Below the pieces are notes generated by a model. The model saw only the letters and a list, made by a program, of their open reading frames with translations, was not told the DNA's origin and made no database searches. A stretch of 20,000 bases of DNA from an uncultured virus (IMG/VR IMGVR_UViG_3300001605_000024) (Duplodnaviria; Heunggongvirae; Uroviricota; Caudoviricetes), in the IMG/VR virus record IMGVR_UViG_3300001605_000024, positions 57,268-77,267 of that record. One strand, 5' to 3'. Each line of letters begins with the position of its first letter. The first letter of the stretch is position 1. The position numbers were made by a program, and so were the translations under genes. Shown here piece by piece: positions 7,398-18,494 of the stretch.

Positions 7398-8270
7398 ATG
7401 AAAAACGTAGTAGTATCACTTAGTGGGGGAATGGATTCTTCAACATTATTATTAAGAGCATTATCTGAATACGGTAATGTAGTTGCCGTGTCTTTTGATT
7501 ATGGTCAAAAGCATAAGGTGGAGCTTGAACGAGCCCAAGAATTAGTACAATATATAAATGTAACTAAATTTACACAAAAGCCAGTTCGTGATAGAGGAGA
7601 AGGATTTAAAAAAGACTATCCTGTAAAACATCAAGTAATTAAACTTGACGGATTAACTAATCTACTTCATTCCACATTAGTAGAGGGTGGAGCAGAAGTA
7701 CCTGAAGGCCATTATGAACAAGATAACATGAAGGAAACTGTAATCCCGAATCGCAACAAGATCTTCAGTTCAATTGTTCAAGCTATTGCTTTATCAACAG
7801 CCGTACAAACCAATTTAACTTGTGATATTGCTTTAGGCATTCATGCAGGTGACCATGCTATTTATCCAGACTGCCGACAAGAATTTAGAGATATTGATCA
7901 TCAAGCTTTTGTAGTTGGTAACTGGGAAGCAGAACGAGTTAATTTCTATACACCATATCTAGATACTGACAAGTTTGGTATTTTGAAGGATGGTGAGAGA
8001 TTGTGTGAAGAGTTAGGGTTGGATTTTAATGAAGTATATAGACGTACTAATACTTCTTATAAACCCATTAAACACTACTATAGACCAGAAACTAATGCTT
8101 TTAAATGGTATTCCGATTACAAATCAGCTTCTTCAGTAGAGCGTATCGAAGCATTTCTTAAACTAGGTAAACCGGATCCAGTAGCTTATGCTGATGAAAA
8201 AGGGCCGGTAAGTTGGGAAATAGCTAAAGCACATGTAGAATCAGTTTTAATAAATCATACTTTAAACTAA
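7398..8270 (+). CDS. queC: 7-cyano-7-deazaguanine (preQ0) synthase
   Basis: SGGMDS PP-loop, FDYGQKH, VIPNRN, HAGDHAIYPDCR. Confidence 0.93.
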   Translation: MKNVVVSLSGGMDSSTLLLRALSEYGNVVAVSFDYGQKHKVELERAQELVQYINVTKFTQKPVRDRGEGFKKDYPVKHQVIKLDGLTNLLHSTLVEGGAEVPEGHYEQDNMKETVIPNRNKIFSSIVQAIALSTAVQTNLTCDIALGIHAGDHAIYPDCRQEFRDIDHQAFVVGNWEAERVNFYTPYLDTDKFGILKDGERLCEELGLDFNEVYRRTNTSYKPIKHYYRPETNAFKWYSDYKSASSVERIEAFLKLGKPDPVAYADEKGPVSWEIAKAHVESVLINHTLN

Positions 8271-8271
8271 T

Positions 8272-8637
8272 ATGAACACTATAGGATTAATAACAACTGC
8301 TGCAGAGACAGGATTAACAATTCATGAATCATTCAATGATTATTTAATAAATAATTCTAACGGTACATATAGTACTACAATTTCACCCAATTTCACATTT
8401 TCAGCCTTATCCGATTATATGGAAAACAACTCATCACAACCACAACAAGTAAAAGTAGCAGTATTCGAAATTGAACGAGATGAAAACCAAAAAGTAATCT
8501 CTACACAATTTATTAGTGAGTTTTGGATTGAACATAAGTCTAAAGCTAATTTAACATTAACAGTAGCTAAGAAACTAGCTAAAGAAGTTGATCTAGACAA
8601 GATTGTAATTAAAGAACTCTCAAGAGTTTTTTTCTAA
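8272..8637 (+). CDS. Hypothetical protein (true start possibly 8419)
   Basis: ORF track; low-complexity N-terminal part and an internal ATG at 8419. Confidence 0.55.
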   Translation: MNTIGLITTAAETGLTIHESFNDYLINNSNGTYSTTISPNFTFSALSDYMENNSSQPQQVKVAVFEIERDENQKVISTQFISEFWIEHKSKANLTLTVAKKLAKEVDLDKIVIKELSRVFF

Positions 8638-8687
8638 AAACGCGTGGAGTAATCTCTCCCACATATGTATAACAAATAACAAGTAAA

Positions 8688-8810
8688 ATGCTTTCAACAT
8701 TCAATTTACATAAGAATAATAACAGTACGATTTGGTCGTTTAATCAAAGACCGGAAGCGTATGGTGATGTTATATGTGGAGATGTCCGAGCAAAGTATTT
8801 TAGTAAGTAA
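8688..8810 (+). CDS. Putative attenuator leader peptide (40 aa) containing all 20 amino acids
   Basis: MLSTFNLHKNNNSTIWSFNQRPEAYGDVICGDVRAKYFSK; A-rich start context; followed by a terminator with a competing complementary segment. Confidence 0.75.
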   Translation: MLSTFNLHKNNNSTIWSFNQRPEAYGDVICGDVRAKYFSK

Positions 8811-8832
8811 TTAAAAAACTAAACATAACTTG

Positions 8833-8866
8833 AAAGCCTCGGACAAAAAAAGTTCGAGGTTTTTTT
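8833..8866 (+). terminator. Intrinsic terminator (putative attenuator) upstream of the tRNA array
   Basis: AAAGCCTCGGAC-A7-GTTCGAGGTTTTTTT; 5' arm CTCGGACA (8838-8845) also pairs with TGTCCGAG (8783-8790). Confidence 0.85.
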
Positions 8867-8872
8867 AGTTCC

Positions 8873-8935
8873 GTTTGGCTTTAAGAGATATGGATGTTAT
8901 ATTTAGGAGTAATTAAGATATGAGATGCATATCTG
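8873..8935 (+). repeat. Promoter + 5' hairpin unit, copy 1
   Basis: GTTTGGC-N18-TATATTTAGGAGTAATTAAGA followed by hairpin AGATATG/CATATCT. Confidence 0.75.
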
Positions 8936-8964
8936 AAAAGAAAAAAAAAGAAATACTTACAAAT

Positions 8965-9032
8965 GTTTGGCTCCTAAAAATAAGGATGTTATATTTAGGA
9001 AGTAATTGAGACGTGGAATAAGTTCACATCTA
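8965..9032 (+). repeat. Promoter + 5' hairpin unit, copy 2
   Basis: GTTTGGC-N18-TATATTTAGGAAGTAATTGAGACGTGGAATAAGTTCACATCT, nearly identical to 12484-12550. Confidence 0.8.
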
Positions 9033-9041
9033 AAAAAATAA

Positions 9042-9117
9042 CGGGTGGTAGAGGAGTCAGGTTTATCTCGCTTCCCTTGGAAGGAAGAGCACGTGCGTTC
9101 GAATCGCACTCACCCGA
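9042..9117 (+). tRNA. tRNA-Pro(TGG)
   Basis: Cloverleaf; CTTCC-CTTGGAA-GGAAG; TTCGAAT T-loop. Confidence 0.92.
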
Positions 9118-9127
9118 CTTAACAAAT

Positions 9128-9198
9128 TGACCTATAGTGTAACGGTAACACACAACACTTTGACTGTTGTTTTTCTAGTTCGAATCTAGATAGGTCAT
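9128..9198 (+). tRNA. tRNA-Gln(TTG)
   Basis: TGACCTA/TAGGTCA acceptor; CAACA-CTTTGAC-TGTTG. Confidence 0.92.
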
Positions 9199-9209
9199 CC
9201 GAAAGATTT

Positions 9210-9226
9210 AGTTCTTTGACGTATTG
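9210..9226 (+). promoter_or_regulatory. boxA-like antitermination element
   Basis: AGTTCTTTGACGTATTG, similar to rrn boxA; second copy at 13039. Confidence 0.6.
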
Positions 9227-9262
9227 ATGCCAAAAAATTCTCCGGTATACTCGCCTTCGTAG

Positions 9263-9336
9263 GGGTTGGTAGCATAGTGGTTTAATGCAGTTGACTGTTA
9301 ATCAAAAGATCGTGAGTTCGAATCTCACCCAACCCG
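9263..9336 (+). tRNA. tRNA-Asn(GTT)
   Basis: GGGTTGG/CCAACCC acceptor; loop CTGTTAA. Confidence 0.9.
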
Positions 9337-9392
9337 CTTAATTTTTCTTGTTAAGAGAAAGAGCTTTGATATATTTATAATAAATATTAATT

Positions 9393-9839
9393 ATGAAGTA
9401 TATTAAAGAAAACAAAACTGAGATTATAGAATTATATAAAAGCTCTAATGGTAATTTAAATATTACGGCTAATAGATTTAATTTAGTTTCAAAATGGGCT
9501 ATAAGAAATTTCCTTCAAAAAGAAAATTTATATGGTAAAATTAAAGCAAAAGAAACACTTCAAGAAAAAAGTAGAAGAAAAAGTTTACATGTTATTAACT
9601 GGAAGAGAAATAGGAAAATTGAATTAGTCAAATATAAAGGAGGTAAATGTGAAAAGTGTGGGTATGATAAATGTATTGAAGCATTAGAATTCCATCATAA
9701 AGACCCATCCCAAAAAGATTTCAATATAAGTTCTCATTCCTATTCATCAAAAAGAATGAAAGATGAAGCCGATAAATGTTTGTTATTATGTTCTAATTGT
9801 CATAGAGAAGAACATGTAAGGTTAAAATTAGATAATTAG
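9393..9839 (+). CDS. HNH endonuclease
   Basis: CEKCGY...LEFHH...LLCSNCHREEH. Confidence 0.9.
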   Translation: MKYIKENKTEIIELYKSSNGNLNITANRFNLVSKWAIRNFLQKENLYGKIKAKETLQEKSRRKSLHVINWKRNRKIELVKYKGGKCEKCGYDKCIEALEFHHKDPSQKDFNISSHSYSSKRMKDEADKCLLLCSNCHREEHVRLKLDN

Positions 9840-9863
9840 TTCAATTGACCGGAGAGCATAATT

Positions 9864-9937
9864 GGGCCTATGGCGCAACTGGTTAGCGTAGCACGCTCAT
9901 AACGTGAAAGTTGGGAGTTCGAATCTCTCTAGGCCCA
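9864..9937 (+). tRNA. tRNA(CAT), probably Ile2 (lysidine type)
   Basis: Loop CTCATAA; body GGGCCTA...GCACG resembles tRNA-Ile; separate Met and fMet genes are present. Confidence 0.8.
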
Positions 9938-9944
9938 CAATTCT

Positions 9945-10116
9945 GAGACGACTGTGGTAACCAGCCCACGGTATATGAATCCTTAAAAGCCGTCTTGATT
10001 CGCGATATTAAAGCGGTGCGGGTAGAGTTGATATAAGTTTGGAGTAGCTTGCCAATTAACGAAAATTCAACCACTAACGAGAGTTAGTCATGATGTCGAT
10101 GCCGACAAAAATCGGA
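9945..10116 (+). ncRNA. Unassigned structured RNA
   Basis: GC-richer than the genes; several stems including ACTAAC-GAGA-GTTAGT (GNRA loop). Confidence 0.45.
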
Positions 10117-10124
10117 ATTAATTT

Positions 10125-10196
10125 AGTTCCTTAGGCTAACTGGAAGACCTTTCGGCTACGAACCGGAGAGTGTTGGTTCGAATCCAACAGGGACTA
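10125..10196 (+). tRNA. tRNA-Arg(ACG)
   Basis: TTCGG-CTACGAA-CCGGA; GTTGG-TTCGAAT-CCAAC; weak D-stem. Confidence 0.88.
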
Positions 10197-10254
10197 CGGT
10201 AACCGTTTGCAGCTGCACTACGTTCGGGACTAAAATTAAATCGGGCAGCAACAT

Positions 10255-10326
10255 GGCTCTATAGTTAAATGGAAATAACGAGACTCTTCTAAAGTCAAGT
10301 TCCTAGTTCGATTCTAGGTAGAGCTA
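10255..10326 (+). tRNA. tRNA-Arg(TCT)
   Basis: GGCTCTA/TAGAGCT acceptor; loop CTTCTAA. Confidence 0.9.
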
Positions 10327-10328
10327 CT

Positions 10329-10437
10329 TCATCTGTAGTTTAACATGGGGTAAAACACAATGACTGGTAAGTCGCTCTTGGAGATGATCACTCCCGAACT
10401 TACTAAGAGTAAGCTGGTTCAAGCCCAGCTGGATGAG
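10329..10437 (+). ncRNA. tRNA-like RNA with an expanded anticodon-arm region
   Basis: Acceptor TCATCTG/TGGATGA, D-arm and T-arm GCTGG-TTCAAGC-CCAGC flank an approximately 55-nt stem-loop. Confidence 0.7.
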
Positions 10438-10469
10438 CAATAAAATTATGTTACATTAAAAAGAAAATT

Positions 10470-10979
10470 ATGAATGCTTACAACCGTACATTAGTACTAG
10501 ACGTTTCATATTTGGCACGTGGTATTATTACTGCTGAAAGAGCTTTTGTAATTTCTTACAAAGGTAACGCAGAAATAATTCATGAACATGAAGAAACATT
10601 CGGATTAGTTAATCCAGACTTAGAAATTAGAAAACCTTCAATTATTAGAGTTAAGAAATATGTTAACGATAAGTTACATAGGGTACCATTAACACGAGAT
10701 AATGTGTATCGTAGAGATGGATATGAGTGTGTTTATTGTGGTGAAGGTAGAAAAAAATTACTTACTTTAGACCATGTTATACCTAAATCTAAAGGTGGAG
10801 CAGATACGTGGGAAAACTTAGTCACTGCTTGCAGTAAATGCAATAATGAAAAAGATAATTTAACATTAGAGGAATACGGAAAAGCAATTCCACAACCATA
10901 TAGACCACATTATCTAATGATGATTAAGTCAATGTTTGATATACCTGAGGAATGGAAGAAGTTTTTACTATTTCAATAA
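10470..10979 (+). CDS. HNH endonuclease (McrA-like)
   Basis: RDGYECVYCG...LTLDHVIPKSKGG...WENLVTACSKCNNEK. Confidence 0.92.
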   Translation: MNAYNRTLVLDVSYLARGIITAERAFVISYKGNAEIIHEHEETFGLVNPDLEIRKPSIIRVKKYVNDKLHRVPLTRDNVYRRDGYECVYCGEGRKKLLTLDHVIPKSKGGADTWENLVTACSKCNNEKDNLTLEEYGKAIPQPYRPHYLMMIKSMFDIPEEWKKFLLFQ

Positions 10980-10982
10980 AAT

Positions 10983-11015
10983 GTTTGGCTCTTAAAAATA
11001 AAATACTTATATTTA
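10983..11015 (+). promoter_or_regulatory. Bacteroidota-type -33/-7 promoter
   Basis: GTTTGGC-N18-TATATTTA. Confidence 0.8.
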
Positions 11016-11030
11016 GGTATAAGTTAAGAT

Positions 11031-11142
11031 AGTCAGGTGGCGGAATTGGTAGACGCTGTCCGTGGAGGATTGATTGGTTCTGTTCAATTCAGACGTTGGA
11101 AATGGTGTTCCACAAATACAGGTTCAAGTCCTGTCCTGACTA
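11031..11142 (+). ncRNA. tRNA-like RNA with a Leu-like D-arm and no canonical anticodon arm
   Basis: AGTCAGG/CCTGACT acceptor, GCGGAATTGGTAGACGC D-arm, ACAGG-TTCAAGT-CCTGT T-arm, approximately 60-nt branched insert. Confidence 0.72.
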
Positions 11143-11198
11143 CCTACGTTTTCTGAGAACCACGCTAGACAGATGACAGTTCGGAAAGACGACAATAT

Positions 11199-11272
11199 AG
11201 TACCTTAGCTCAATTGGTTAGAGCATCCGTCTGATACGCGGAAGGTTATAGATTCGAGTTCTATAGGTACTA
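11199..11272 (+). tRNA. tRNA-Ile(GAT)
   Basis: TCCGT-CTGATAC-GCGGA; full cloverleaf. Confidence 0.92.
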
Positions 11273-11279
11273 CATAAAT

Positions 11280-11353
11280 GCTCCTTTAGCTTAGCTGGTA
11301 AAAGCGTTTGGCTTACATCCAAAAGGTCGGTGGTTCGAATCCATCAGGGAGTA
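11280..11353 (+). tRNA. tRNA-Val(TAC)
   Basis: TTTGG-CTTACAT-CCAAA; full cloverleaf. Confidence 0.92.
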
Positions 11354-11412
11354 CGAGTGGGACTGTTACTAATTCATAGAACTATAGAGTGTTTGCATAG
11401 AATTAGAATTAT

Positions 11413-11494
11413 GCCTGTATCGCATAGCGGCAATTGCTGAGCACTGTAAATGCTCTCTCTTTGGAGTTCGGTGGTTCGAGTCCATCTGCAGGCA
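11413..11494 (+). tRNA. tRNA-Tyr(GTA)
   Basis: GAGCA-CTGTAAA-TGCTC; long variable arm. Confidence 0.92.
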
Positions 11495-11528
11495 CAACTT
11501 AGGTTCGAGAAACTAATATTTATAATAA

Positions 11529-11984
11529 ATGTTAGATATGAAAACTCAAGATAAAGTACTTGAATTAAGAACTAAAGGAAAAACAATACCGGAAATATGT
11601 TCTATATTAGGTATAAAAAAAGGATCAGTAGGTTATCACTTAAAAAACTTAAATTTAAGTAAAAATAATCAAAGTAGTAAACCTTCAAAAAGTAAAGATT
11701 ATTGGCCTATATTAAAAGGTGAAGAACAAAGTATTGGAACATATCATAATAATATTAGAGGTGTTTTAAAACGATTTATTATAAAAAATAATATAATACC
11801 TTACATGTGTTCTGAATGTGGGTGTGATGATAACTGGAGAGGTAAAAAAATGTCATTAATTTTAGACCACATAAATGGTATAAATAATGACAATAGATTA
11901 GAAAATCTAAGATTCTTATGTCCCAATTGTGATTCTATTCAAGATACATATAAAGGTAGAAATAAAAAAACAATGGAGCAGTAG
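11529..11984 (+). CDS. HNH endonuclease with N-terminal HTH
   Basis: CSECG...LDHINGINNDNRLENLRFLCPNCDS; HTH-like N-terminus; start may be 11538. Confidence 0.9.
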   Translation: MLDMKTQDKVLELRTKGKTIPEICSILGIKKGSVGYHLKNLNLSKNNQSSKPSKSKDYWPILKGEEQSIGTYHNNIRGVLKRFIIKNNIIPYMCSECGCDDNWRGKKMSLILDHINGINNDNRLENLRFLCPNCDSIQDTYKGRNKKTMEQ

Positions 11985-12047
11985 CAATGGAGGTCCACGC
12001 ACTGAATTGAAGCTTCAGACATGTAAGTTCGATACTTACCTGCTCCA
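11975..12047 (+). tRNA. tRNA-Phe(GAA), atypical D-arm and anticodon loop
   Basis: GGAGCAG/CTGCTCC acceptor; CTGAA-TTGAAGC-TTCAG; overlaps the HNH stop. Confidence 0.82.
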
Positions 12048-12055
12048 CATTATAT

Positions 12056-12128
12056 TCTCTCGAAGCTCATGTGGACGGGCTACTGGCTTTTAACCAGTAG
12101 GTAGTTGGTTCGAGGCCAACCGGGAGAA
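12056..12128 (+). tRNA. tRNA-Lys(TTT)
   Basis: ACTGG-CTTTTAA-CCAGT; A at position 8. Confidence 0.9.
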
Positions 12129-12136
12129 CAGTAAAT

Positions 12137-12223
12137 AGAGGTGATCTGGCTGGATCAAGACCCGATCTTGAAAATCGGTAGAACGTTAATAGCGTTTTGT
12201 GAGTTCGAGTCTCACCGCCTCTT
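12137..12223 (+). tRNA. tRNA-Ser(TGA)
   Basis: CCGAT-CTTGAAA-ATCGG; long variable arm. Confidence 0.88.
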
Positions 12224-12229
12224 CAATAT

Positions 12230-12303
12230 GGCAAGATGGTAGAGTTGGTTTCTTACACTGGTCTCATAAGCCGGGGACATAGGTTCAAATCCTATTCTTG
12301 CTA
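12230..12303 (+). tRNA. tRNA-Met(CAT), probably elongator
   Basis: CTGGT-CTCATAA-GCCGG; GGC acceptor start. Confidence 0.85.
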
Positions 12304-12312
12304 CTTAAATAT

Positions 12313-12387
12313 GGTGTTTGAAGCATTAAGGTGATGCGCAGGTCTGTGGAACCTGAGAAGACGGGTCGGTACCGTTCTTACACCCCA
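12313..12387 (+). tRNA. tRNA-His(GTG) with G-1 and encoded CCA
   Basis: CAGGT-CTGTGGA-ACCTG; C73-CCA; atypical T-loop GTCGGTA. Confidence 0.85.
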
Positions 12388-12388
12388 T

Positions 12389-12474
12389 AGAGAGTAAATC
12401 ATGATGGTGATTGACCTCGCCTGCTAAGCGATGGGTTCTTTAAAAAGAATACGGTTCGATTCCGTTGCTCTCTG
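12389..12474 (+). tRNA. tRNA-Ser(GCT)
   Basis: Loop CTGCTAA; long variable arm; G73. Confidence 0.87.
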
Positions 12475-12483
12475 CTGAAAAAA

Positions 12484-12550
12484 GTTTGGCTTTTAAAAAT
12501 AAAGATGTTATATTTAGGAGTAATTAAGACGTGAAATAAGTTCACATCTT
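12484..12550 (+). repeat. Promoter + 5' hairpin unit, copy 3
   Basis: GTTTGGC-N18-TATATTTAGGAGTAATTAAGACGTGAAATAAGTTCACATCTT. Confidence 0.8.
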
Positions 12551-12569
12551 AAAAGAAAAATGACAAAAT

Positions 12570-12602
12570 GTTTGGCTTTAGTAAAAATATTTCATATCTT
12601 TA
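12570..12602 (+). promoter_or_regulatory. Bacteroidota-type promoter, tandem to 12484
   Basis: GTTTGGC-N18-TATCTTTA. Confidence 0.75.
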
Positions 12603-12606
12603 TAAC

Positions 12607-12819
12607 ATGATAAAAATAGATAAGTCACTCGTAGGAAAAATAGTTAAAGTTCATTTACCTCAAACTTATTACAAAGGATCAGGAGTTTCAACTGAGGCTA
12701 GTTATATTATAGGTAAATGCACATTTGCAGGATTTAACTGGCGTATAGGTGCTAGACAAGTAACAATAAACCGAACACCTATATTTCCCGTAATAGAATC
12801 TCAAGTTGAGATTTTATAA
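12607..12819 (+). CDS. Small hypothetical protein (70 aa), possibly near-leaderless
   Basis: The track start at 12568 overlaps the promoter; ATG at 12607 lies just after the -7 box. Confidence 0.6.
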   Translation: MIKIDKSLVGKIVKVHLPQTYYKGSGVSTEASYIIGKCTFAGFNWRIGARQVTINRTPIFPVIESQVEIL

Positions 12820-12827
12820 AAATATAT

Positions 12828-12901
12828 TGCGAGTTATAGTAATGGTAACTTACTGGGCTCATAACCCAGAGCTGGAGGTTCGAATCCTTCACTCGCTACC
12901 A
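12828..12901 (+). tRNA. Initiator tRNA-fMet(CAT) with CCA
   Basis: Unpaired 1:72; three G-C pairs (GGG/CCC) in the anticodon stem. Confidence 0.92.
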
Positions 12902-12957
12902 ATTGTATTAAACAAATAATGGTCTCCAGTGCCTACCAACAGTGGAAAATTTAACAT

Positions 12958-13030
12958 GGGCTTGTAGCTCAACTGGCTGAGCGCTTCATTTGCAATGAAG
13001 AGGATGTGGGTTCAAATCCCACCTTGTCCA
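12958..13030 (+). tRNA. tRNA-Ala(TGC)
   Basis: G3:U70; CTTCA-TTTGCAA-TGAAG. Confidence 0.92.
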
Positions 13031-13038
13031 CTAAAATT

Positions 13039-13055
13039 AGATCTTTGACATATTG
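13039..13055 (+). promoter_or_regulatory. boxA-like antitermination element
   Basis: AGATCTTTGACATATTG; 15/17 identical to 9210-9226. Confidence 0.6.
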
Positions 13056-13064
13056 TAATTAAAT

Positions 13065-13217
13065 TGTAGAGTGTCGAAATTGGCAGACGAGCCCTCCTGT
13101 CCCGAGGGTGGTGATAAAGAAATAAAGTATAGTTAACGGGTGGCATTAGATTATTTTCTAAAATTATGTTAACTATACCTAATCTCATCGTAGACGGTTC
13201 GAATCCTCTCTCTACAG
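13065..13217 (+). ncRNA. tRNA-like RNA (GTC loop) with an approximately 80-nt variable-arm insertion
   Basis: TGTAGAG/CTCTACA acceptor; CCCTC-CTGTCCC-GAGGG; 11-bp GTATAGTTAAC/GTTAACTATAC stem; GGTTCGAATCC. Confidence 0.72.
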
Positions 13218-13218
13218 C

Positions 13219-13342
13219 TATAGAAACGTAGTGAAGCTGTAATGATGTTTAATTGGATAAAAGCATAAAAAAGGGTTTAGAGTAGTGTCGCGTGTCCGTA
13301 TCTCATCATCAGTAACCCCGAAAGACCCGAAGCGTTTCTATA
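13219..13342 (+). ncRNA. Unassigned rod-like RNA
   Basis: 11-bp closing stem TATAGAAACGT/GCGTTTCTATA with nested stems. Confidence 0.55.
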
Positions 13343-13346
13343 TTAT

Positions 13347-13427
13347 GCTCCAGTGTTGGAATTGGTAGACATCAATGACTTAGGATCATTGGCCTATGGC
13401 GTGGGGGTTCGAGTCCCTCCTGGAGTA
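13347..13427 (+). tRNA. tRNA-Leu(TAG)
   Basis: AATGA-CTTAGGA-TCATT; variable arm. Confidence 0.92.
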
Positions 13428-13430
13428 CAA

Positions 13431-13560
13431 AAGGTTGATTGGGGAATGGTGATATGAATTATCTGGTAGTGAAGAAAAATTAGTATCACCGGAGTTTAAA
13501 CTACTATAGTAAAGCCAATTGTAAAAGTAGATGTCCACTGAACCATCTTCTACTTTCCTA
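13431..13560 (+). ncRNA. Unassigned structured RNA with a possible pseudoknot
   Basis: GATTGG/CCAATT, GGTGATAT/GTATCACC and AAAGTAGA/TCTACTTT stems. Confidence 0.55.
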
Positions 13561-13565
13561 AAATT

Positions 13566-13637
13566 GCTCCTAAAGCATTGCTGGCGATGCGTATGTCTTG
13601 TAAACATAAAAACTTGGTTCGATTCCGAGTAGGAGCT
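13566..13637 (+). tRNA. tRNA-Thr(TGT)
   Basis: TATGT-CTTGTAA-ACATA; A8/U14. Confidence 0.9.
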
Positions 13638-13649
13638 CAAAAAATATAA

Positions 13650-13721
13650 GCGGGATTCGTATAGTGATAATTACACTAGCCTTCCAAGCCTGTGACGAGA
13701 GTTTGATTCTCTCATCCCGCT
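13650..13721 (+). tRNA. tRNA-Gly(TCC), divergent
   Basis: GCGGGAT/ATCCCGC acceptor, U73, loop CTTCCAA; mismatched anticodon stem; T-loop TTTGATT. Confidence 0.78.
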
Positions 13722-13724
13722 CTA

Positions 13725-13880
13725 GCAGTCACTTGACTCAGATAGTACAGTGAAATTGGTTGGGGTATCTGAAACCCATGAACCAAGGCGCAAGCTAAGA
13801 GTAAACTTGCAACAACTAAGTGCCAATACATTAGAAACGTAGCTCTAGGGTGATCTAGAGTCGTAGCCAATCTTAGTTAA
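13725..13880 (+). ncRNA. Unassigned structured RNA or RNAs
   Basis: Interleaved complementary segments plus GCAAG/CTTGC, AACTAAG/CTTAGTT and CTCTAG/CTAGAG stems. Confidence 0.45.
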
Positions 13881-13889
13881 TTTTAACAT

Positions 13890-13962
13890 GTTCCTGAGGA
13901 CAAATTGGTTGAGTCGTCACCCTTTCAAGGTGAAGGAGCGGGTTCGAATCCCGCCAGGAATA
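13890..13962 (+). tRNA. tRNA-Glu(TTC)
   Basis: TCACC-CTTTCAA-GGTGA; full cloverleaf. Confidence 0.92.
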
Positions 13963-14028
13963 CACAGCTGTGGTGGACAGCAATGACGGTCAATCATTAG
14001 ACGCTCAAAACCGATCCACCAACTTTAC

Positions 14029-14099
14029 ATGTCCATAGTGAAATGGTATCATAACGCTCTCCAAAAGCAGAGTTCCGAGTTCGAATCTTGGTGGACGTG
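14029..14099 (+). tRNA. tRNA-Trp(CCA)
   Basis: Loop CTCCAAA; G73; short anticodon stem. Confidence 0.85.
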
Positions 14100-14107
14100 C
14101 ATAATAT

Positions 14108-14187
14108 ACAAGTGTAGTTTAATATGGAAAAAATAACCACTTCCGGAGTGGTAGATAGGTTTAGTTCAAATCTCCTCACTTGTGCCA
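14108..14187 (+). tRNA. tRNA-Arg(CCG) with a 3-nt T-stem bulge and encoded CCA
   Basis: ACAAGTG/CACTTGT acceptor; ACCAC-TTCCGGA-GTGGT. Confidence 0.75.
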
Positions 14188-14188
14188 A

Positions 14189-14282
14189 AAACTAAGGTAC
14201 CTATTTTGAGAAGGTAGGTCGTCTGAGTTGACCGCAGACATAAAATTTTATTCAGGAAGAAATAAAAAATCTCCCTTAGTTT
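14189..14282 (+). ncRNA. Four-way-junction RNA, not a tRNA
   Basis: 9-bp closing stem AAACTAAGG/CCTTAGTTT enclosing three hairpins. Confidence 0.5.
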
Positions 14283-14311
14283 GGCTTTCTTAAATATAGA
14301 TATTATATTTA
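14279..14311 (+). promoter_or_regulatory. Bacteroidota-type promoter
   Basis: GTTTGGC-N18-TATATTTA. Confidence 0.8.
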
Positions 14312-14326
14312 GATATAAATTAAAAT

Positions 14327-14409
14327 GTCAGAGTGTCGTAACAGGTAGCCGAGATAGACTTAAAATCTATTGAGCATAGCTCGTGCGGGTTCGAGTCCCG
14401 CCTCTGATA
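14327..14409 (+). tRNA. tRNA-Leu(TAA)
   Basis: ATAGA-CTTAAAA-TCTAT; variable arm. Confidence 0.92.
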
Positions 14410-14438
14410 CAAAAAAATAGCATCAATACATTAAAAAT

Positions 14439-14514
14439 GGTTCGTTAGGGGAGTTAGGCCGTCCCCGTTTGCCTGTCACGCAAAAGATCACGGGTTCAAA
14501 TCCCGTACGAACCG
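14439..14514 (+). tRNA. tRNA-Asp(GTC)
   Basis: TTTGC-CTGTCAC-GCAAA; G73. Confidence 0.93.
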
Positions 14515-14516
14515 CA

Positions 14517-14695
14517 ATTACTAGTTGTAGATCTTTATAGACATTCTATTGGACGTGAGTTCGAATCTCACCATCTCCACATCTAAAATTATTAACTGGG
14601 GATGACCGGTATTGACAGTAGAGAGAGTAGATAAAAGGAGATTAGTAGTTAAAGCAAACGACAACTTTGCATTAGCGGCCTAAAAAGCCATAGCG
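14517..14695 (+). ncRNA. ssrA: Circularly permuted (two-piece) tmRNA; acceptor piece about 14517-14579, coding piece from 14598; tag ANDNFALAA
   Basis: GGAC-GTGAG-TTCGAAT-CTCAC-CATCTCCA precedes GGGGATG...TTGAC; G3:U70; tag frame 14654-14683; 3' boundary approximate. Confidence 0.88.
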
Positions 14696-14837
14696 TTGAT
14701 GTTGTGCTCGATACTGTCGCGGTAAGTTAATTATACTAGGTATAAACAACTTATTTCCAGTACAATGAGAGTCCAGCGTGATCTGGCCAAATTCGGGTAA
14801 AATTATTCCCCCCTAAATCTTTTATGATTTAGGTCAG

Positions 14838-14873
14838 GAGGTGGGATACTATAAAAAGTTCTCACCTCTTTTT
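14838..14873 (+). terminator. Intrinsic terminator-like hairpin before tRNA-Cys
   Basis: GAGGTGGGA...TCTCACCTC followed by TTTTT. Confidence 0.6.
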
Positions 14874-14879
14874 ACTAAT

Positions 14880-14953
14880 GGTACTATACCCAAGTGGCTT
14901 AAGGGGCTTGTCTGCAAAACAAGTATTCATTGGTTCAAATCCAATTAGTACCT
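14880..14953 (+). tRNA. tRNA-Cys(GCA)
   Basis: CTTGT-CTGCAAA-ACAAG; U73. Confidence 0.93.
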
Positions 14954-14962
14954 CTAAACATT

Positions 14963-14998
14963 AAAGCTTGGCTATTCAAGCTTTCTTTATTATATTTA
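14963..14998 (+). promoter_or_regulatory. Overlapping terminator hairpin and promoter
   Basis: AAAGCTTG/CAAGCTTT hairpin containing GCTTGGC; TATATTTA at the conserved spacing. Confidence 0.7.
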
Positions 14999-15002
14999 CA
15001 TT

Positions 15003-15587
15003 ATGAAAAAAATAATATTTCTTGACCATGATGGTGTAATATGTTTATCCCGCAATTGGGGTACTCGCCATACTAAACAAAGGAAATGGGGAAAACGAAA
15101 AATGTCAATGGATCTCCAATCTATTCCTATAGAATATCGATTTGATAACTTTGATAAAAAATCAATTGAGTTATTAAATGATATACTAGAGCAAACTAAT
15201 GCTGATATAGTTGTTAGCTCTGACTGGAGACTTTTTACTTCTCTAAATGAAATGAGTACATATTACACATCTCAAGGAATCATTAAAACGCCGGTTGGAT
15301 TCACAAGAAAATTAGGAGATTTTGATGTACCTAAAGAATTTGAATGGAACCGACAATGGGAACTAGAACAAACCAGATGCTTTGAAATTCACCAATATCT
15401 AAAAGACCATCCAGATATTACACATTGGGTTGCGATTGATGATTTGGATATGAGAAAAATTGGTAAACACTATTCTGTTGATTTTGAGCATGAATGGGGA
15501 TTAGATAATTTTGTCCATACTCCTTTAAGTCGAGAAGGCATTAAGCAAACCGGGGTTAAAGAAAAAATATTAAGTTTCTTAACTTAA
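15003..15587 (+). CDS. HAD-family phosphatase, RNA-repair-associated (HAD_SAK_2-like)
   Basis: IFLDHDGV, VVSSDWR and WVAIDD motifs. Confidence 0.8.
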   Translation: MKKIIFLDHDGVICLSRNWGTRHTKQRKWGKRKMSMDLQSIPIEYRFDNFDKKSIELLNDILEQTNADIVVSSDWRLFTSLNEMSTYYTSQGIIKTPVGFTRKLGDFDVPKEFEWNRQWELEQTRCFEIHQYLKDHPDITHWVAIDDLDMRKIGKHYSVDFEHEWGLDNFVHTPLSREGIKQTGVKEKILSFLT

Positions 15588-15621
15588 AGCTTGGCTCTCC
15601 AAGCTTTTTTTCTTATCTTTA
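15586..15621 (+). promoter_or_regulatory. Overlapping terminator hairpin and promoter
   Basis: AAAGCTTGG-CTCT-CCAAGCTTT plus T run; GCTTGGC-N18-TATCTTTA. Confidence 0.75.
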
Positions 15622-15641
15622 TATAAATAAAATTAACGGTT

Positions 15642-16208
15642 ATGGCAACACTTACAATAACAGAAGAACAACTTAAACTAATCCAAACTGCACTAGACTT
15701 TTATTCCAGAGTAGGTATTGGTCAGATGTGGGCAATTAAAGATCATCCCACATATCAAAATGTATTATATGATAAACTAAGACCTAAAAAAGAAATAGAA
15801 GTAGGTGATAGAACTGAAAGAGGAGAGGTTGTTGAACTAGGTAAAGGTTATATCAAAACAAAAGGGAGTTGGGGAAATGGTGAAGAAATTCGTACTCATA
15901 AAGATATTAAAAATGTAAAATTATCTATTGATTATGACTTATACCATCAAATAAGAGATGAGGGTGAGGATTTATTAAATCAAGGTAGAAATAAACTATT
16001 ACAGATAGACTTACATAAAAATGGCAGTTATGGTATATTTAATGAACAAGTTGATGATAGTTGTAGAGTTGCTTTTGATATTATTCAAGTTATACGACAC
16101 GAATTTTGGAAAAGAAATCCTGAAAGAAGTAATACTGTAGATTCTTCTACAACTATTTGGACTAAAGATGGTAATAAAGTTAAATGTCAACTTAATAGCG
16201 GAGAATAA
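15642..16208 (+). CDS. Hypothetical protein
   Basis: 188-aa ORF after a promoter. Confidence 0.75.
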   Translation: MATLTITEEQLKLIQTALDFYSRVGIGQMWAIKDHPTYQNVLYDKLRPKKEIEVGDRTERGEVVELGKGYIKTKGSWGNGEEIRTHKDIKNVKLSIDYDLYHQIRDEGEDLLNQGRNKLLQIDLHKNGSYGIFNEQVDDSCRVAFDIIQVIRHEFWKRNPERSNTVDSSTTIWTKDGNKVKCQLNSGE

Positions 16209-16998: not shown

Positions 16999-18030
16999 AT
17001 GAATTTACTGCAAACATTAGAGCAATATCACAATGAAGGATGGTTAATCAAACAGAAACATCCGGATTTTCCAATCACCATTTGGAATTATTCCAAAACT
17101 ACCCAATATGTTAGGAAATGGGATAAAATTACATTAATGTGTAGAGGATTAGTTACTATGGATGATACTGGAGAAATTTTAGCTCGTCCTTTTAAAAAAT
17201 TCTTTAATATAGAAGAAAATCAACACACACCTACCCCAGATTTTGATGTATTTGAAAAAATGGATGGTTCCTTAATTATTTCCTTCTATTTATGGGGTAG
17301 TTGGATATTTGCATCTCGTGGCTCATTTACTTCAGATCAAGCCAAAGCCGCTTCTAAGTTATTTTATTCTCAATGTGATTGTATAGGAATGAATATGGAT
17401 GTTACTTACTTGTTTGAATTCACTGCTCCATGGAATAGAATAGTAGTGGATTATGGTGATAAAGAAAATTTAACTTTACTAGGTGCTATTAGAAATGAAG
17501 ATGGGGTGGAAGCACCATGGTGGCATTTAGAATTAGTCTCTAAAGAAAATAAAATTGACTTAGTTAAAAAGTATGATGGTATTAATGACTACACTACTTT
17601 AAAAAGTAAAATCCAAGATAATGCTGAAGGATTTGTTATTAAATTTTCTAATGGTGATAAAGTAAAAATTAAAGGAGAAGAATATTTAAGACTACATAAA
17701 ATCATGACTAATATCTCTACTACTGATATTTGGGAAACTTTATCAGATGGTAGAAATATGGAAGAGATATTGAAAGATGTTCCTGATGAATTTTATAATA
17801 AAATCAAAGAGGTAGTTGGTGATATTGCCGTTAGGTTTGATAATATTAGAACAGATTATATCCAATATTTTACCGATATTGTATTCAAAATAGGTAGAGA
17901 AGATAGGAGAAGATTTGCTGAAGAAGCAAGAAGATATAATCATTCTTCAATTTTATTCGCTATGTTAGATGGAAAGGATATCAATCCTATAATTTGGAAA
18001 ATTGTAAAACCTGAATGGAAAAAAATTTAA
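16999..18030 (+). CDS. T4 Rnl1-like RNA ligase
   Basis: CRGLV, RPFKKFFN, EKMDGS (motif I), LFEF, EGFV, KIKGEEY. Confidence 0.92.
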   Translation: MNLLQTLEQYHNEGWLIKQKHPDFPITIWNYSKTTQYVRKWDKITLMCRGLVTMDDTGEILARPFKKFFNIEENQHTPTPDFDVFEKMDGSLIISFYLWGSWIFASRGSFTSDQAKAASKLFYSQCDCIGMNMDVTYLFEFTAPWNRIVVDYGDKENLTLLGAIRNEDGVEAPWWHLELVSKENKIDLVKKYDGINDYTTLKSKIQDNAEGFVIKFSNGDKVKIKGEEYLRLHKIMTNISTTDIWETLSDGRNMEEILKDVPDEFYNKIKEVVGDIAVRFDNIRTDYIQYFTDIVFKIGREDRRRFAEEARRYNHSSILFAMLDGKDINPIIWKIVKPEWKKI

Positions 18031-18034
18031 GATG

Positions 18035-18067
18035 GTTTGGCTCTCCAATCTTCCTTACTTATCTTTA
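18035..18067 (+). promoter_or_regulatory. Bacteroidota-type promoter
   Basis: GTTTGGC-N18-TATCTTTA. Confidence 0.8.
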
Positions 18068-18086
18068 GGTATAAGAAAAAACAGTT

Positions 18087-18494
18087 ATGAAAACATTAAT
18101 ACTCCTAAGAGGATTACCAGGATCAGGAAAATCTACATTTGCTCGTTATATGTTTTCAAATAACGTGTTTGAGACAGATCAGTATTTCTATGATCATGAT
18201 GGTAACTACAATTTTGACTCAACCAAACTTAAAGAAGCACATCAAGATTGTCAAAAACGTGTAGAAGCTCTAATGGAAATATCAGACTCAACTCAATATG
18301 GGAAAGAGATTGTGGTAGCTAATACATTTACTCAAGAATGGGAAATGCAACCTTATTTTGATCTAGCCTCTAAATATAATTATGGAGTATTTAGTTTAAT
18401 AGTAGAAAATAGACATAATGGTATAAATATCCATAATGTTCCTGAAGATAAACTTAAACAAATGGCAAACCGATTTCAATTTAAATTAAAATAA
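18087..18494 (+). CDS. P-loop kinase, polynucleotide-kinase-like (AAA_33)
   Basis: LRGLPGSGKST Walker A, VVANTF, NIHNVP; next to the RNA ligase. Confidence 0.85.
   Translation: MKTLILLRGLPGSGKSTFARYMFSNNVFETDQYFYDHDGNYNFDSTKLKEAHQDCQKRVEALMEISDSTQYGKEIVVANTFTQEWEMQPYFDLASKYNYGVFSLIVENRHNGINIHNVPEDKLKQMANRFQFKLK

Follow-up and report, generated by a model that had tools for sequence, protein, structure and literature searches.

Known tRNA arrays and the locus described here

A viral transfer RNA (tRNA) gene cluster has been defined by a minimum of 15 tRNA genes and a density of two or more per kb, and the surveyed viral clusters, those of the Cellulophaga phages phi4:1 and phi17:2 among them, hold 15–37 genes, with all 20 isotypes present in eight clusters (Morgado and Vicente 2019, PMC6409571). 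Here we describe an array of 26 tRNA genes in a 20-kb stretch of DNA (the window), which makes up the last 20 kb of the 77,267-bp contig IMGVR_UViG_3300001605_000024 of an uncultured freshwater virus, with a CheckV completeness of 48%. At 26 genes in 5.9 kb (4.4 per kb), the array is a viral tRNA gene cluster under this definition. Phage clusters covering all 20 isotypes have been published before, and the array described here is an unusually clean and complete case.

The best DNA matches to the tRNAs of the window (about 78%) come from Cellulophaga phage phi4:1, a 145-kb phage of a Flavobacteriia host with 23 annotated tRNA features, whose array also begins with tRNA-Pro. However, the phi4:1 set reads 58 of 61 codons and covers 19 amino acids (61 and 20 in the window, under the most permissive wobble rule considered below), its genes follow another order and it sits in an unrelated phage backbone, whereas the array in the window is joined to a transfer-messenger RNA (tmRNA) and to ligase, kinase and phosphatase genes. 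A comparable linkage is found in bacteriophage T4, where the tRNA genes are interspersed with the homing endonuclease segB and the stable RNAs rnaC and rnaD, and which encodes an Rnl1-type ligase together with kinase and phosphatase activities; according to the accessible part of van den Berg 2023, these T4 enzymes reseal tRNA-Lys cut by the PrrC anticodon nuclease. Yet the eight tRNAs of T4 form an incomplete set, and its kinase and phosphatase are one protein, as opposed to separate genes in the window. Phage XacN1 (56 tRNAs, all 20 amino acids) and Shigella phage Sf14 (26 tRNAs, 19 amino acids) are known for covering all or nearly all isotypes, a property discussed as a way of not depending on the host's translation pool. 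In what is accessible of these reports, XacN1 differs by its redundant 56 genes, placed in the terminal repeats of a 385-kb genome, and Sf14 by being one amino acid short, whereas the window has one gene per decoding unit.

The closest parallels in composition lie outside the phages. The 'superwobble' sets of Mollicutes and plastids combine one tRNA with uridine at position 34 (U34) per four-codon box with a modified CAU tRNA that reads AUA, giving 25–30 species. These sets are cellular or organellar and their U34 is unmodified or tolerated so, whereas the modification state in the window depends on the host. We found no publication joining 'superwobble' with a phage tRNA set among the accessible papers, judged by title and abstract.

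Composition of the tRNA set

With default settings, ARAGORN placed 24 tRNAs between 9042 and 14954, all on the plus strand, and a relaxed score (-ps90) added tRNA-Ser(UGA) and tRNA-His(GUG), bringing the total to 26. Rfam agrees: cmscan returned 24 RF00005 matches at or above the gathering score of 29, with tRNA-His the lowest, while for both Ser genes the best-in-clan match was the tRNA-Sec model (40.7 and 36.5 bits, under its cut-off of 47), a frequent behaviour of class-II tRNAs. The 26 genes carry 24 distinct anticodons, CAU alone being repeated (in three different genes), and cover 20/20 amino acids plus an initiator and a probable tRNA-Ile2. Seven four-codon boxes have a single U34 tRNA each, namely Pro, Val, Ser, Ala, Leu, Thr and Gly (anticodons UGG, UAC, UGA, UGC, UAG, UGU and UCC), Arg has the anticodons ACG, CCG and UCU, and every two-codon or split box has a single tRNA. 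A preliminary description made from the sequence alone had listed exactly this composition, including the absence of duplicated isoacceptors, and it holds throughout. Neither ARAGORN nor Rfam found further tRNAs on the 77,267-bp contig outside the array; more may lie on the absent half of the genome, and all contig-wide negatives in this work cover the 77,267 bp only.

The genes retain recognisable identity elements, judged here by E. coli rules: tRNA-His keeps G-1 opposite C73 and tRNA-Ala keeps G3.U70, and the discriminators are U73 in Cys and Gly, G73 in Asp, Asn and Trp, and A73 in Leu. The CCA end is encoded in only 3 of the 26 genes (His, the initiator and Arg-CCG). Three additional tRNA-shaped elements with large insertions, termed A, B and C below, are found inside the array; when introns are allowed, ARAGORN forces A into a Thr-GGU and B into a Leu-CAA. 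Were these two decoding, strict non-redundancy would be lost, but the anticodon region is disrupted in both.

The three CAU genes can be told apart by their stems. In the gene at 12828, position U1 is mismatched with U72, the anticodon stem has three G-C pairs at its base, and A11-U24 was read from the sequence; by these bacterial hallmarks it is an initiator. The gene at 9864, which is not initiator-like, has C4-G69 and C5-G68, both also present in E. coli ileX. In the gene at 12230 these pairs are A4-U69 and A5-U68; its G2-C71 and C3-G70 recur in E. coli metT, which itself has U4-A69 and A5-U68. The C4-G69 and C5-G68 pairs are said, after work by Ikeuchi et al. in 2005, to let E. coli TilS tell tRNA-Ile2 from tRNA-Met. 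Because the acceptor pairs match ileX in one gene and metT in the other, we consider it quite likely, by this E. coli rule, that 9864 is tRNA-Ile2 and 12230 the elongator tRNA-Met; the earlier assignment of 9864 to Ile2 is thereby made probable rather than proven. An antisense match to the Rfam family 'Plastid-ycf2' (RF04354) was rejected as an Ile2 detector after a control showed it to be non-specific: the score was 41.0 bits for 9864 and 39.5 for ileX, but also 32.1 for metT/metU and 36.1 for the phi4:1 Gly-UCC gene, with none for the E. coli initiators. A recurring triad of initiator, C4/C5-type and other CAU genes was likewise discarded, as the 18 distinct CAU tRNAs of other arrays split 5/3/10 among these types with no consistent triad. 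BLAST searches with single CAU tRNAs against deposited phages, intended to borrow annotation, returned no match.

Decoding capacity, codon usage and rarity

We compared the set with the 22,415 codons in the 93 plus-strand open reading frames (ORFs) of the contig. Four-way reading by U34 is the only rule that gives 61/61 codons. A U34 that reads U as well as A and G, which cmo5U-type modification allows, gives 54/61 and leaves unread seven NNC codons amounting to 3.3% of phage codons. The reading of C- and U-ending codons by U34 depends on its modification in the host. Likewise, AUA would need lysidine (made by TilS) on the 9864 CAU tRNA, and CGU, CGC and CGA would need inosine (made by TadA) on the 10125 ACG tRNA.

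NNU codons make up 38–58% of each four-fold box and are the commonest or near-commonest there, yet the array carries U34 and not G34. Conversely, CGG has its own tRNA-Arg(CCG) while accounting for about 5% of the 288 CGN codons. Because tRNA-Arg(CCG) is kept for this rare codon and U34 is used where NNU prevails, the set looks built for coverage rather than for codon frequency. A preference for A-ending codons is also apparent—UUA forms 90% of UUR, AGA 92% of AGR, AAA 89% of AAR and AUA 42% of Ile codons—and it is the last of these figures that makes the Ile2 gene matter. With one gene per decoding unit, the array would offer a natural experiment on the smallest tRNA repertoire that supports whole-proteome translation in a bacterial cell, and its U34 tRNAs, serving common NNU codons, yield a testable prediction on wobble capacity in the host.

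How unusual is this completeness? In a crude chance model of 23 draws from 45 anticodon types, 0.1% of 200,000 trials gave no duplicate, and 0 trials combined the absence of duplicates with all 61 codons. We also scanned 162 loci, selected through a single flanking gene (the HAD gene), a choice that biases the sample. One tRNA or more occurred in 83 of them, and 15 distinct arrays held at least 15 tRNAs, 8 of these 15 possibly being cut by the locus ends. All 15 arrays have 0–1 duplicated non-CAU anticodon, so that non-redundancy itself is generic to such arrays; 61/61 codons were reached by the array in the window only, with phi4:1 next.

A candidate back-up tRNA pool and its carrier

We favour the view, at a probability of roughly 55%, that the array is a back-up tRNA pool against host tRNA loss. 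Its control signals fit this idea. A promoter-like 33-mer, TTTGGCT-N17-TATATTTAG, occurs in five copies, all in the tRNA region, where chance would yield 0.00, and the rest of the 77 kb has no further copy; the five motifs appear to divide the array into four or five transcription units. The motif fits the sigma-70 pattern at 9/12 positions, and it also fits TTTG / TAnnTTTG, which we take to be the Bacteroidota pattern. A looser copy lies at 14968, ahead of the HAD phosphatase gene. Downstream of the array, the catalytic motifs of a ligase, a 5' kinase and a 3' phosphatase are intact, as would be needed for T4-type RNA repair, and activity on tRNA is predicted for them.

The five near-identical promoters would drive four or five polycistronic precursors, to be cut and finished by host RNase P, RNase Z and CCA-adding enzyme and charged by host synthetases. 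The phage could then keep translating all its codons while the host tRNA pool falls, whether through shut-off and decay or through anticodon nucleases and other tRNA-targeting immunity. Rnl1, the kinase and the HAD phosphatase may reseal cleaved tRNAs in the manner of T4 Pnkp and Rnl1, and the tmRNA may free ribosomes stalled on broken or undecodable messages. Host degradation has reportedly been proposed, by Yang in 2021, as a driver of phage tRNAs. Phage tRNAs as a counter to tRNA-targeting defence are treated in the accessible parts of van den Berg 2023 and Azam 2024, and the idea of defence evasion, to go by the accessible text of PMC10264068, PMC11555353 and PMC12409363, has already been published.

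The remaining contig genes include large terminase, portal, capsid protease, major capsid protein, sheath, tube and baseplate, along with replication and nucleotide metabolism functions, and the virus is therefore a myovirus. Among deposited phages, its capsid is closest to that of Flavobacterium phage vB_FspM_immuto (57.7% identity over 100% of the protein), whose genome of 160,410 bp agrees with the completeness estimate of the contig. We take the carrier to be a myovirus of lytic type, its genome about 160 kb long, whose host is probably an aquatic member of the Bacteroidota. At the same locus, immuto has QueC (NC_055915 18607-19488), a small ORF, four annotated tRNAs—Cys, Ser, Glu and Gln, three of them recovered by covariance model—and a phosphoesterase; a protein search detected no Rnl1 homologue in its genome, an empty result that is weak alone. 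Four metagenomic relatives (33–55% complete, capsids 72–82% identical) have 0, 1, 0 and 0 tRNAs. Because immuto and these relatives hold 0–4 tRNAs, a small pre-existing tRNA locus appears to have grown into a full set in the lineage of the window, which also has a ligase seemingly missing in the cultured relative. With about four tRNAs and no Rnl1 match in immuto, the tRNA set and the ligase thus both mark this lineage, and the linkage of repair genes and tmRNA to the array, set beside such a relative, offers a comparative system for separating codon compensation from defence evasion.

Weighing the explanations

A number of observations weigh against a back-up pool. Under classical wobble, in which U34 reads A and G, only 47/61 codons are read and 14 codons, or 19.8% of phage codons, are not. 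The earlier statement that the set can in principle read the whole code is thus upheld only under four-way U34 wobble. The pool is not autonomous: the half-genome contig yielded no TilS, TadA, CCA-adding enzyme or SmpB—the nearest thing to TilS being a 17-bit sub-threshold match inside QueC—and the aminoacyl-tRNA synthetases must all be the host's. The preliminary description had looked to additional tRNAs and to TilS- or TadA-type enzymes elsewhere in the genome, and the contig supplied neither. Two genes are soft spots of the completeness claim by their poor scores: in tRNA-His(GUG) the acceptor stem contains two U.U mismatches and the T-loop is atypical, and tRNA-Ser(UGA) has a poor D-stem and T-stem, with 26.6 bits to RF00005. 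The segment bearing the tmRNA (14518-14871) is skipped or replaced in lake strains, and hence is not a fixed part of the module, and in the accessible text of PMC9004378 permuted tmRNA is assigned to Alphaproteobacteria, some Beta- and Gammaproteobacteria and Cyanobacteria, not to Bacteroidota. A freshwater metatranscriptome gives a weak hint of expression, not proof. The analysis itself establishes the genes with their cloverleaves and identity elements, the decoding counts, the promoters, the catalytic motifs and, by comparison, the gain of the module, whereas expression, processing, charging, four-way U34 reading and the link to host tRNA loss are all inferred; no host or phage nuclease able to deplete tRNAs was identified, and half of the genome is missing. 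What remains of the earlier reading as a full replacement pool, not bias tuning, is a set that is complete, non-redundant and not tuned to codon frequency, with promoters, tmRNA and repair genes that fit, while its whole-code reading is conditional.

Codon-usage compensation, by which an AT-rich phage (31% G+C) supplies tRNAs for the codons it overuses relative to its host and so translates its late genes faster, is the most widely accepted explanation in the literature, to judge from the accessible part of van den Berg 2023, and the anticodons do favour the heavily used A-ending codons UUA, AGA, AAA and AUA. We nevertheless think it unlikely here, because a set that fills every box, down to the rare CGG and the single-codon amino acids, carries no selective signal, NNU codons are served through U34 wobble and not G34, and a related phage of similar type manages with about four tRNAs. 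A different kind of account sees a mobile, self-propagating island in which tRNA and HNH homing endonuclease genes move together from phage to phage, build up at a permissive locus and shed duplicates through deletions between similar copies, completeness being a by-product that perhaps widens host range. Three HNH genes do lie inside the array, a homing endonuclease also sits within the T4 tRNA cluster, and related arrays stand beside HAD genes in many otherwise different viral contigs, and the closest HAD homologues (64–65% identity) lack tRNAs within 10 kb. The cassette-like replacements seen within the array of lake strains and the generic non-redundancy of all 15 arrays point the same way. 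Five conserved promoters and kept identity elements nonetheless point to selection for expression and function, and reading 61/61 codons is peculiar to this array among the 15 and beyond the chance model. Such an island is likely as history, yet it explains origin and not maintenance, and as a full alternative to the back-up pool we regard it as doubtful.

The array could be an artefact, a block of host DNA or of chimeric assembly attached to a phage contig, and the locus does come from a metagenomic assembly with a G+C content of 0.34–0.41 in the array as compared with 0.26–0.32 in the flanks. Raised G+C is, however, expected for structured RNA genes; phage genes lie on both flanks and on the same strand, contigs from independent runs cross the array junctions, tRNAs also occupy the homologous locus of a cultured phage, and none of the sampled bacterial genomes contains near-identical tRNAs. 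Taken together, these points make an artefact extremely improbable.

Layout of the locus

The positions of all features are collected in Table 1. The conserved spacers listed there may represent further RNAs or processing signals, and several array spacers are 75–93% identical between phages whose HAD proteins are only about 55–60% identical. The spacer at 13196-13346 is also conserved in the arrays of distant phages (about 72% over 108–161 nt).

Table 1. Features of the tRNA locus and its surroundings, in window coordinates
Feature	Position	Strand	Evidence or remark
QueC-like 7-cyano-7-deazaguanine synthase	7398..8270	+	Pfam PF06508 E 5.7e-38; PHROG 1550
40-codon ORF, all 20 amino acids, 31 distinct codons	8688..8810	+	upstream of first array promoters
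Promoter-like 33-mer, copy 1	8874..8906	+	
Promoter-like 33-mer, copy 2	8966..8998	+	
tRNA-Pro (UGG)	9042..9118	+	ARAGORN; Rfam 53.6 bits
tRNA-Gln (UUG)	9128..9200	+	ARAGORN; Rfam 62.8 bits
tRNA-Asn (GUU)	9263..9337	+	ARAGORN; Rfam 71.2 bits
HNH endonuclease 1	9393..9839	+	PHROG 2255 E 1.2e-27
tRNA (CAU), probable Ile2	9864..9938	+	C4-G69, C5-G68; Rfam 63.3 bits
Conserved non-coding spacer	9939..10124	+	124 nt 80.6% identical in L013/L014; 151 nt 75% in L018
tRNA-Arg (ACG)	10125..10197	+	ARAGORN; Rfam 49.3 bits
tRNA-Arg (UCU)	10255..10327	+	ARAGORN; Rfam 60.4 bits
tRNA-like element A	10329..10440	+	acceptor, D and T arms; anticodon region disrupted
HNH endonuclease 2	10470..10979	+	Pfam PF01844 E 1.1e-15
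Promoter-like 33-mer, copy 3	10984..11016	+	
tRNA-like element B, Leu-scaffold family	11030..11144	+	ARAGORN with introns; fold; family comparison
tRNA-Ile (GAU)	11199..11273	+	ARAGORN; Rfam 69.1 bits
tRNA-Val (UAC)	11280..11354	+	ARAGORN; Rfam 69.3 bits
tRNA-Tyr (GUA)	11413..11495	+	ARAGORN; Rfam 47.4 bits
HNH endonuclease 3	11529..11984	+	PHROG 10822 E 1.9e-26
tRNA-Phe (GAA)	11975..12048	+	ARAGORN; Rfam 46.7 bits
tRNA-Lys (UUU)	12056..12129	+	ARAGORN; Rfam 44 bits
tRNA-Ser (UGA), low-scoring	12137..12224	+	ARAGORN -ps90 only; tRNA-Sec model 40.7 bits
tRNA (CAU), probable elongator Met	12230..12304	+	G2-C71, C3-G70, A4-U69, A5-U68; not initiator-like
tRNA-His (GUG), low-scoring, CCA encoded	12314..12387	+	ARAGORN -ps90; Rfam 32.6 bits
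tRNA-Ser (GCU)	12389..12475	+	ARAGORN; Rfam
Promoter-like 33-mer, copy 4	12485..12517	+	
83-aa ORF, no family match	12568..12819	+	Pfam and PHROG searches
Initiator tRNA-fMet (CAU), CCA encoded	12828..12901	+	U1xU72, G-C triple, A11-U24
tRNA-Ala (UGC), G3.U70	12958..13031	+	ARAGORN; Rfam 63.1 bits
Element C, tRNA-shaped RNA with giant extra arm	13064..13219	+	129.7 bits to model R1
tRNA-Leu (UAG)	13347..13428	+	ARAGORN; Rfam 43.2 bits
Conserved hairpin-containing spacer directly 5' of tRNA-Thr	13507..13561	+	90-92% over 53-56 nt, 9 loci
tRNA-Thr (UGU)	13566..13638	+	ARAGORN; Rfam 51.9 bits
tRNA-Gly (UCC)	13650..13722	+	ARAGORN; Rfam 52.1 bits
tRNA-Glu (UUC)	13890..13963	+	ARAGORN; Rfam 60.7 bits
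tRNA-Trp (CCA)	14029..14100	+	ARAGORN; Rfam 44.4 bits
tRNA-Arg (CCG)	14108..14187	+	ARAGORN; Rfam 45.6 bits
Promoter-like 33-mer, copy 5	14280..14312	+	
tRNA-Leu (UAA)	14327..14410	+	ARAGORN; Rfam 51.1 bits
tRNA-Asp (GUC)	14439..14515	+	ARAGORN; Rfam 59.6 bits
Two-piece (permuted) tmRNA, tag ANDNFALAA then UAA	14531..14683	+	RF04321 62.3 bits, cut-off 47
tRNA-Cys (GCA)	14880..14954	+	ARAGORN; Rfam 64.6 bits
Terminator-like hairpin, array end	14963..14984	+	after last tRNA
HAD phosphatase, 'Swiss-army-knife RNA repair' type, DHDGV	15003..15587	+	Pfam PF18143 E 1.7e-21
T4 Rnl1-type RNA ligase, motif I K87-M-D-G	16999..18030	+	PF09511 E 6.5e-20; PHROG 562 E 2.2e-71
Polynucleotide-kinase-like P-loop protein, GLPGSGKS	18087..18494	+	PF13671 E 4.1e-12; PHROG 2071 E 4.1e-39; PHROG 505 (polynucleotide kinase) E 6.4e-9

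The 40-codon ORF upstream of the array had been described as an all-codon leader. That label does not survive the count, since the ORF uses 31 distinct codons, although each of the 20 amino acids is represented. None of the other contig ORFs of 30–50 amino acids, 101 in all with this one, shares that property, and 0.25% of 40-residue windows of the phage's own proteins reach the same diversity. No homologue was found among the 322 loci compared, and the ORF is best called curious but unproven.

tRNA-shaped RNAs in the array

The three insertion-bearing elements are of different kinds. Element A, for which the forced Thr-GGU call requires a 29-nt insert, differs in its ends from element B and has no homologue among the 322 loci compared. 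Element B belongs to what we call the Leu-scaffold family, whose members share near-invariant ends of the tRNA-Leu type (5' acceptor and D-arm; 3' T-arm, acceptor and A73) around unrelated centres of about 45–105 nt, in which, on reading representatives by eye, a normal anticodon arm is absent. An array can hold several copies (six in L043). A search of IMG/VR in one length band gave at least 125 stretches, and among those listed were 114 distinct elements with 93 centre clusters; the family occurs at L043, L062, L068, L013, L031, L022, L027, L058, L077, L079, L393-L472 and further loci. An identical centre can recur across different phages, and centres are swapped between lake strains. Searches at E 1e-8 and 1e-6 found no member of the family among 50,697 deposited phage records.

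Element C represents a second class. A pattern search identified it on 63 IMG/VR contigs, from which 57 copies, 39 of them distinct, were extracted; on the other six contigs the script did not locate the T-loop. Its loci are L329-L391 together with L028, L043, L057, L058, L062, L068, L072, L078 and L273. The RNAs of 145–165 nt are predicted to have a 7–8-bp acceptor stem, a short D-stem, a T-arm and a giant extra arm of three segments, along with an invariant 6-bp stem that carries the loop CUGUCUC (CUGUCCC in the window), part of this invariance being imposed by the search pattern. In an alignment of 25 sequences, 22 of the 36 predicted pairs keep pairing through two-sided changes, and 97.7% of cells are paired—as compared with 81.2% in shuffles, 0/500 of which reach the observed value, and at most 52.3% with slid partners. 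Members score 101.6–154.6 bits against the covariance model R1 and come from 10 of 54 sources, whereas all else scores at most 55.2 bits; the copy in the window was part of the R1 seed, which qualifies its own score. Element C has no match in Rfam or among the 50,697 deposited phage records. Homology to T4 rnaC or rnaD was rejected, there being no R1 match at E 0.01 or better.

The role of these RNAs can be approached from their sequences. The pyrimidine at position 37 of element C argues against a putative decoding role. Its Asp-like loop contains U33-G34-U35, a motif recognised by tRNA-guanine transglycosylase and by nucleases of the colicin E5 type; a link of this UGU to either is a lead only. 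An antisense function of the element centres against the phage's own genes was discarded, as only chance matches of 10–15 nt were found. Both classes may be processed scaffolded RNAs, decoys, ligase substrates or leucylation targets. A bolder view would make the whole array a counter-defence RNA arsenal, composed of a nuclease-evading tRNA set and two classes of tRNA-shaped RNAs, with the late genes translated from the phage's own pool. The tRNA-shaped RNAs would then be excised by tRNA-processing enzymes and would act, by decoy or inhibition, on the immune nucleases that target tRNA or on enzymes that modify it; or else the ligase, kinase and phosphatase encoded nearby would use them as substrates. 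We hold this view only tentatively, as an improbable extension of the back-up pool. Neither class is described in the accessible literature that we searched, a recent preprint about other tRNA mimics included. Being abundant in uncultured aquatic phages with no match in Rfam or in deposited phages, they may constitute a new layer of phage RNA biology.

Neighbouring genes and tmRNA

Upstream of the array are found RNR subunits, a homing endonuclease, an endolysin, a holin and the QueC-like gene. Queuosine is carried in bacteria by the tRNAs for Asn, Asp, His and Tyr. All four tRNAs are present in the array, the loop of element C carries the UGU motif, and the QueC-like gene adjoins the locus here as in immuto; the gene may have a candidate role in tRNA or DNA modification. 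Rfam found no glutamine riboswitch in the window.

The tmRNA lies between the last two tRNAs. Its alignment recovers the T-arm, the acceptor pairing between the two pieces and the tag frame, and G3.U70 was read from the sequence. Eleven of the 12 low-threshold permuted-tmRNA calls made by ARAGORN on the contig were dismissed as false, and we kept only the one that overlaps the Rfam match. Of the 133 unique phage tmRNA structures in Buchholz et al. 2022 (PMC9004378), 53 are two-piece forms, and 50 of these come from marine or aquatic phages. The tmRNA described here resembles these as a permuted tmRNA in an aquatic myophage, but it is a short form, with 153 nt matched, that lies within a tRNA array and belongs to a phage whose nearest cultured relative infects Flavobacterium.

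Occurrence in bacterial genomes and lake samples

A comparison of the array with 81 Bacteroidia genomes gave some match in 76 of them, with tRNAs about 72–91% identical over partial lengths. Because identity to the sampled Bacteroidia tRNAs reaches only these values, the tRNAs of the array appear to be old diverged copies and not recent host captures. In a search of bacterial genomes, the RNR large subunit was 92% identical to a sequence on a 1.6-kb contig and 47% identical to one in a Bacteroidales metagenome-assembled genome (MAG). The former contig, CAZKLA010000184.1 (L166; 1,642 bp), is binned in an actinobacterial (Aquiluna) MAG and is probably a mis-binned fragment of a related phage. 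Naming the host from RNR and tRNA matches was therefore abandoned, as these amount to a probable phage fragment, a 47% RNR match and partial tRNA matches.

Exact-pattern scans for the tmRNA, the 9864 tRNA and tRNA-Arg(UCU) returned nothing in IMG/VR or the metagenome collection, and a scan of metagenomes with the HAD protein gave a best identity of 71%. In the freshwater metatranscriptome (X13), contigs correspond to 8968-9246, 10120-10345 (identical to the window), 10687-11236, 11367-11579, 12677-12899, 15036-15276 and 18042-18299, the HAD and kinase genes thus being among the regions hit. These are assembled contigs, in which strand and level are unreadable, DNA carry-over is possible and uncovered parts are uninformative.

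Lake-water runs from several studies each hold at least half of the words sampled from the array, which recurs at about 95–99% identity in lake metagenomes of other studies, and contigs of two lake metagenomes (X5, X6), of about 90–100% identity across the region, span its junctions. Junction-spanning contigs from other runs include 8251-9089 and 14872-15815. Where the window has the 76-nt centre of element B (11041-11116), the lake strains carry a different stretch of 65 bases.

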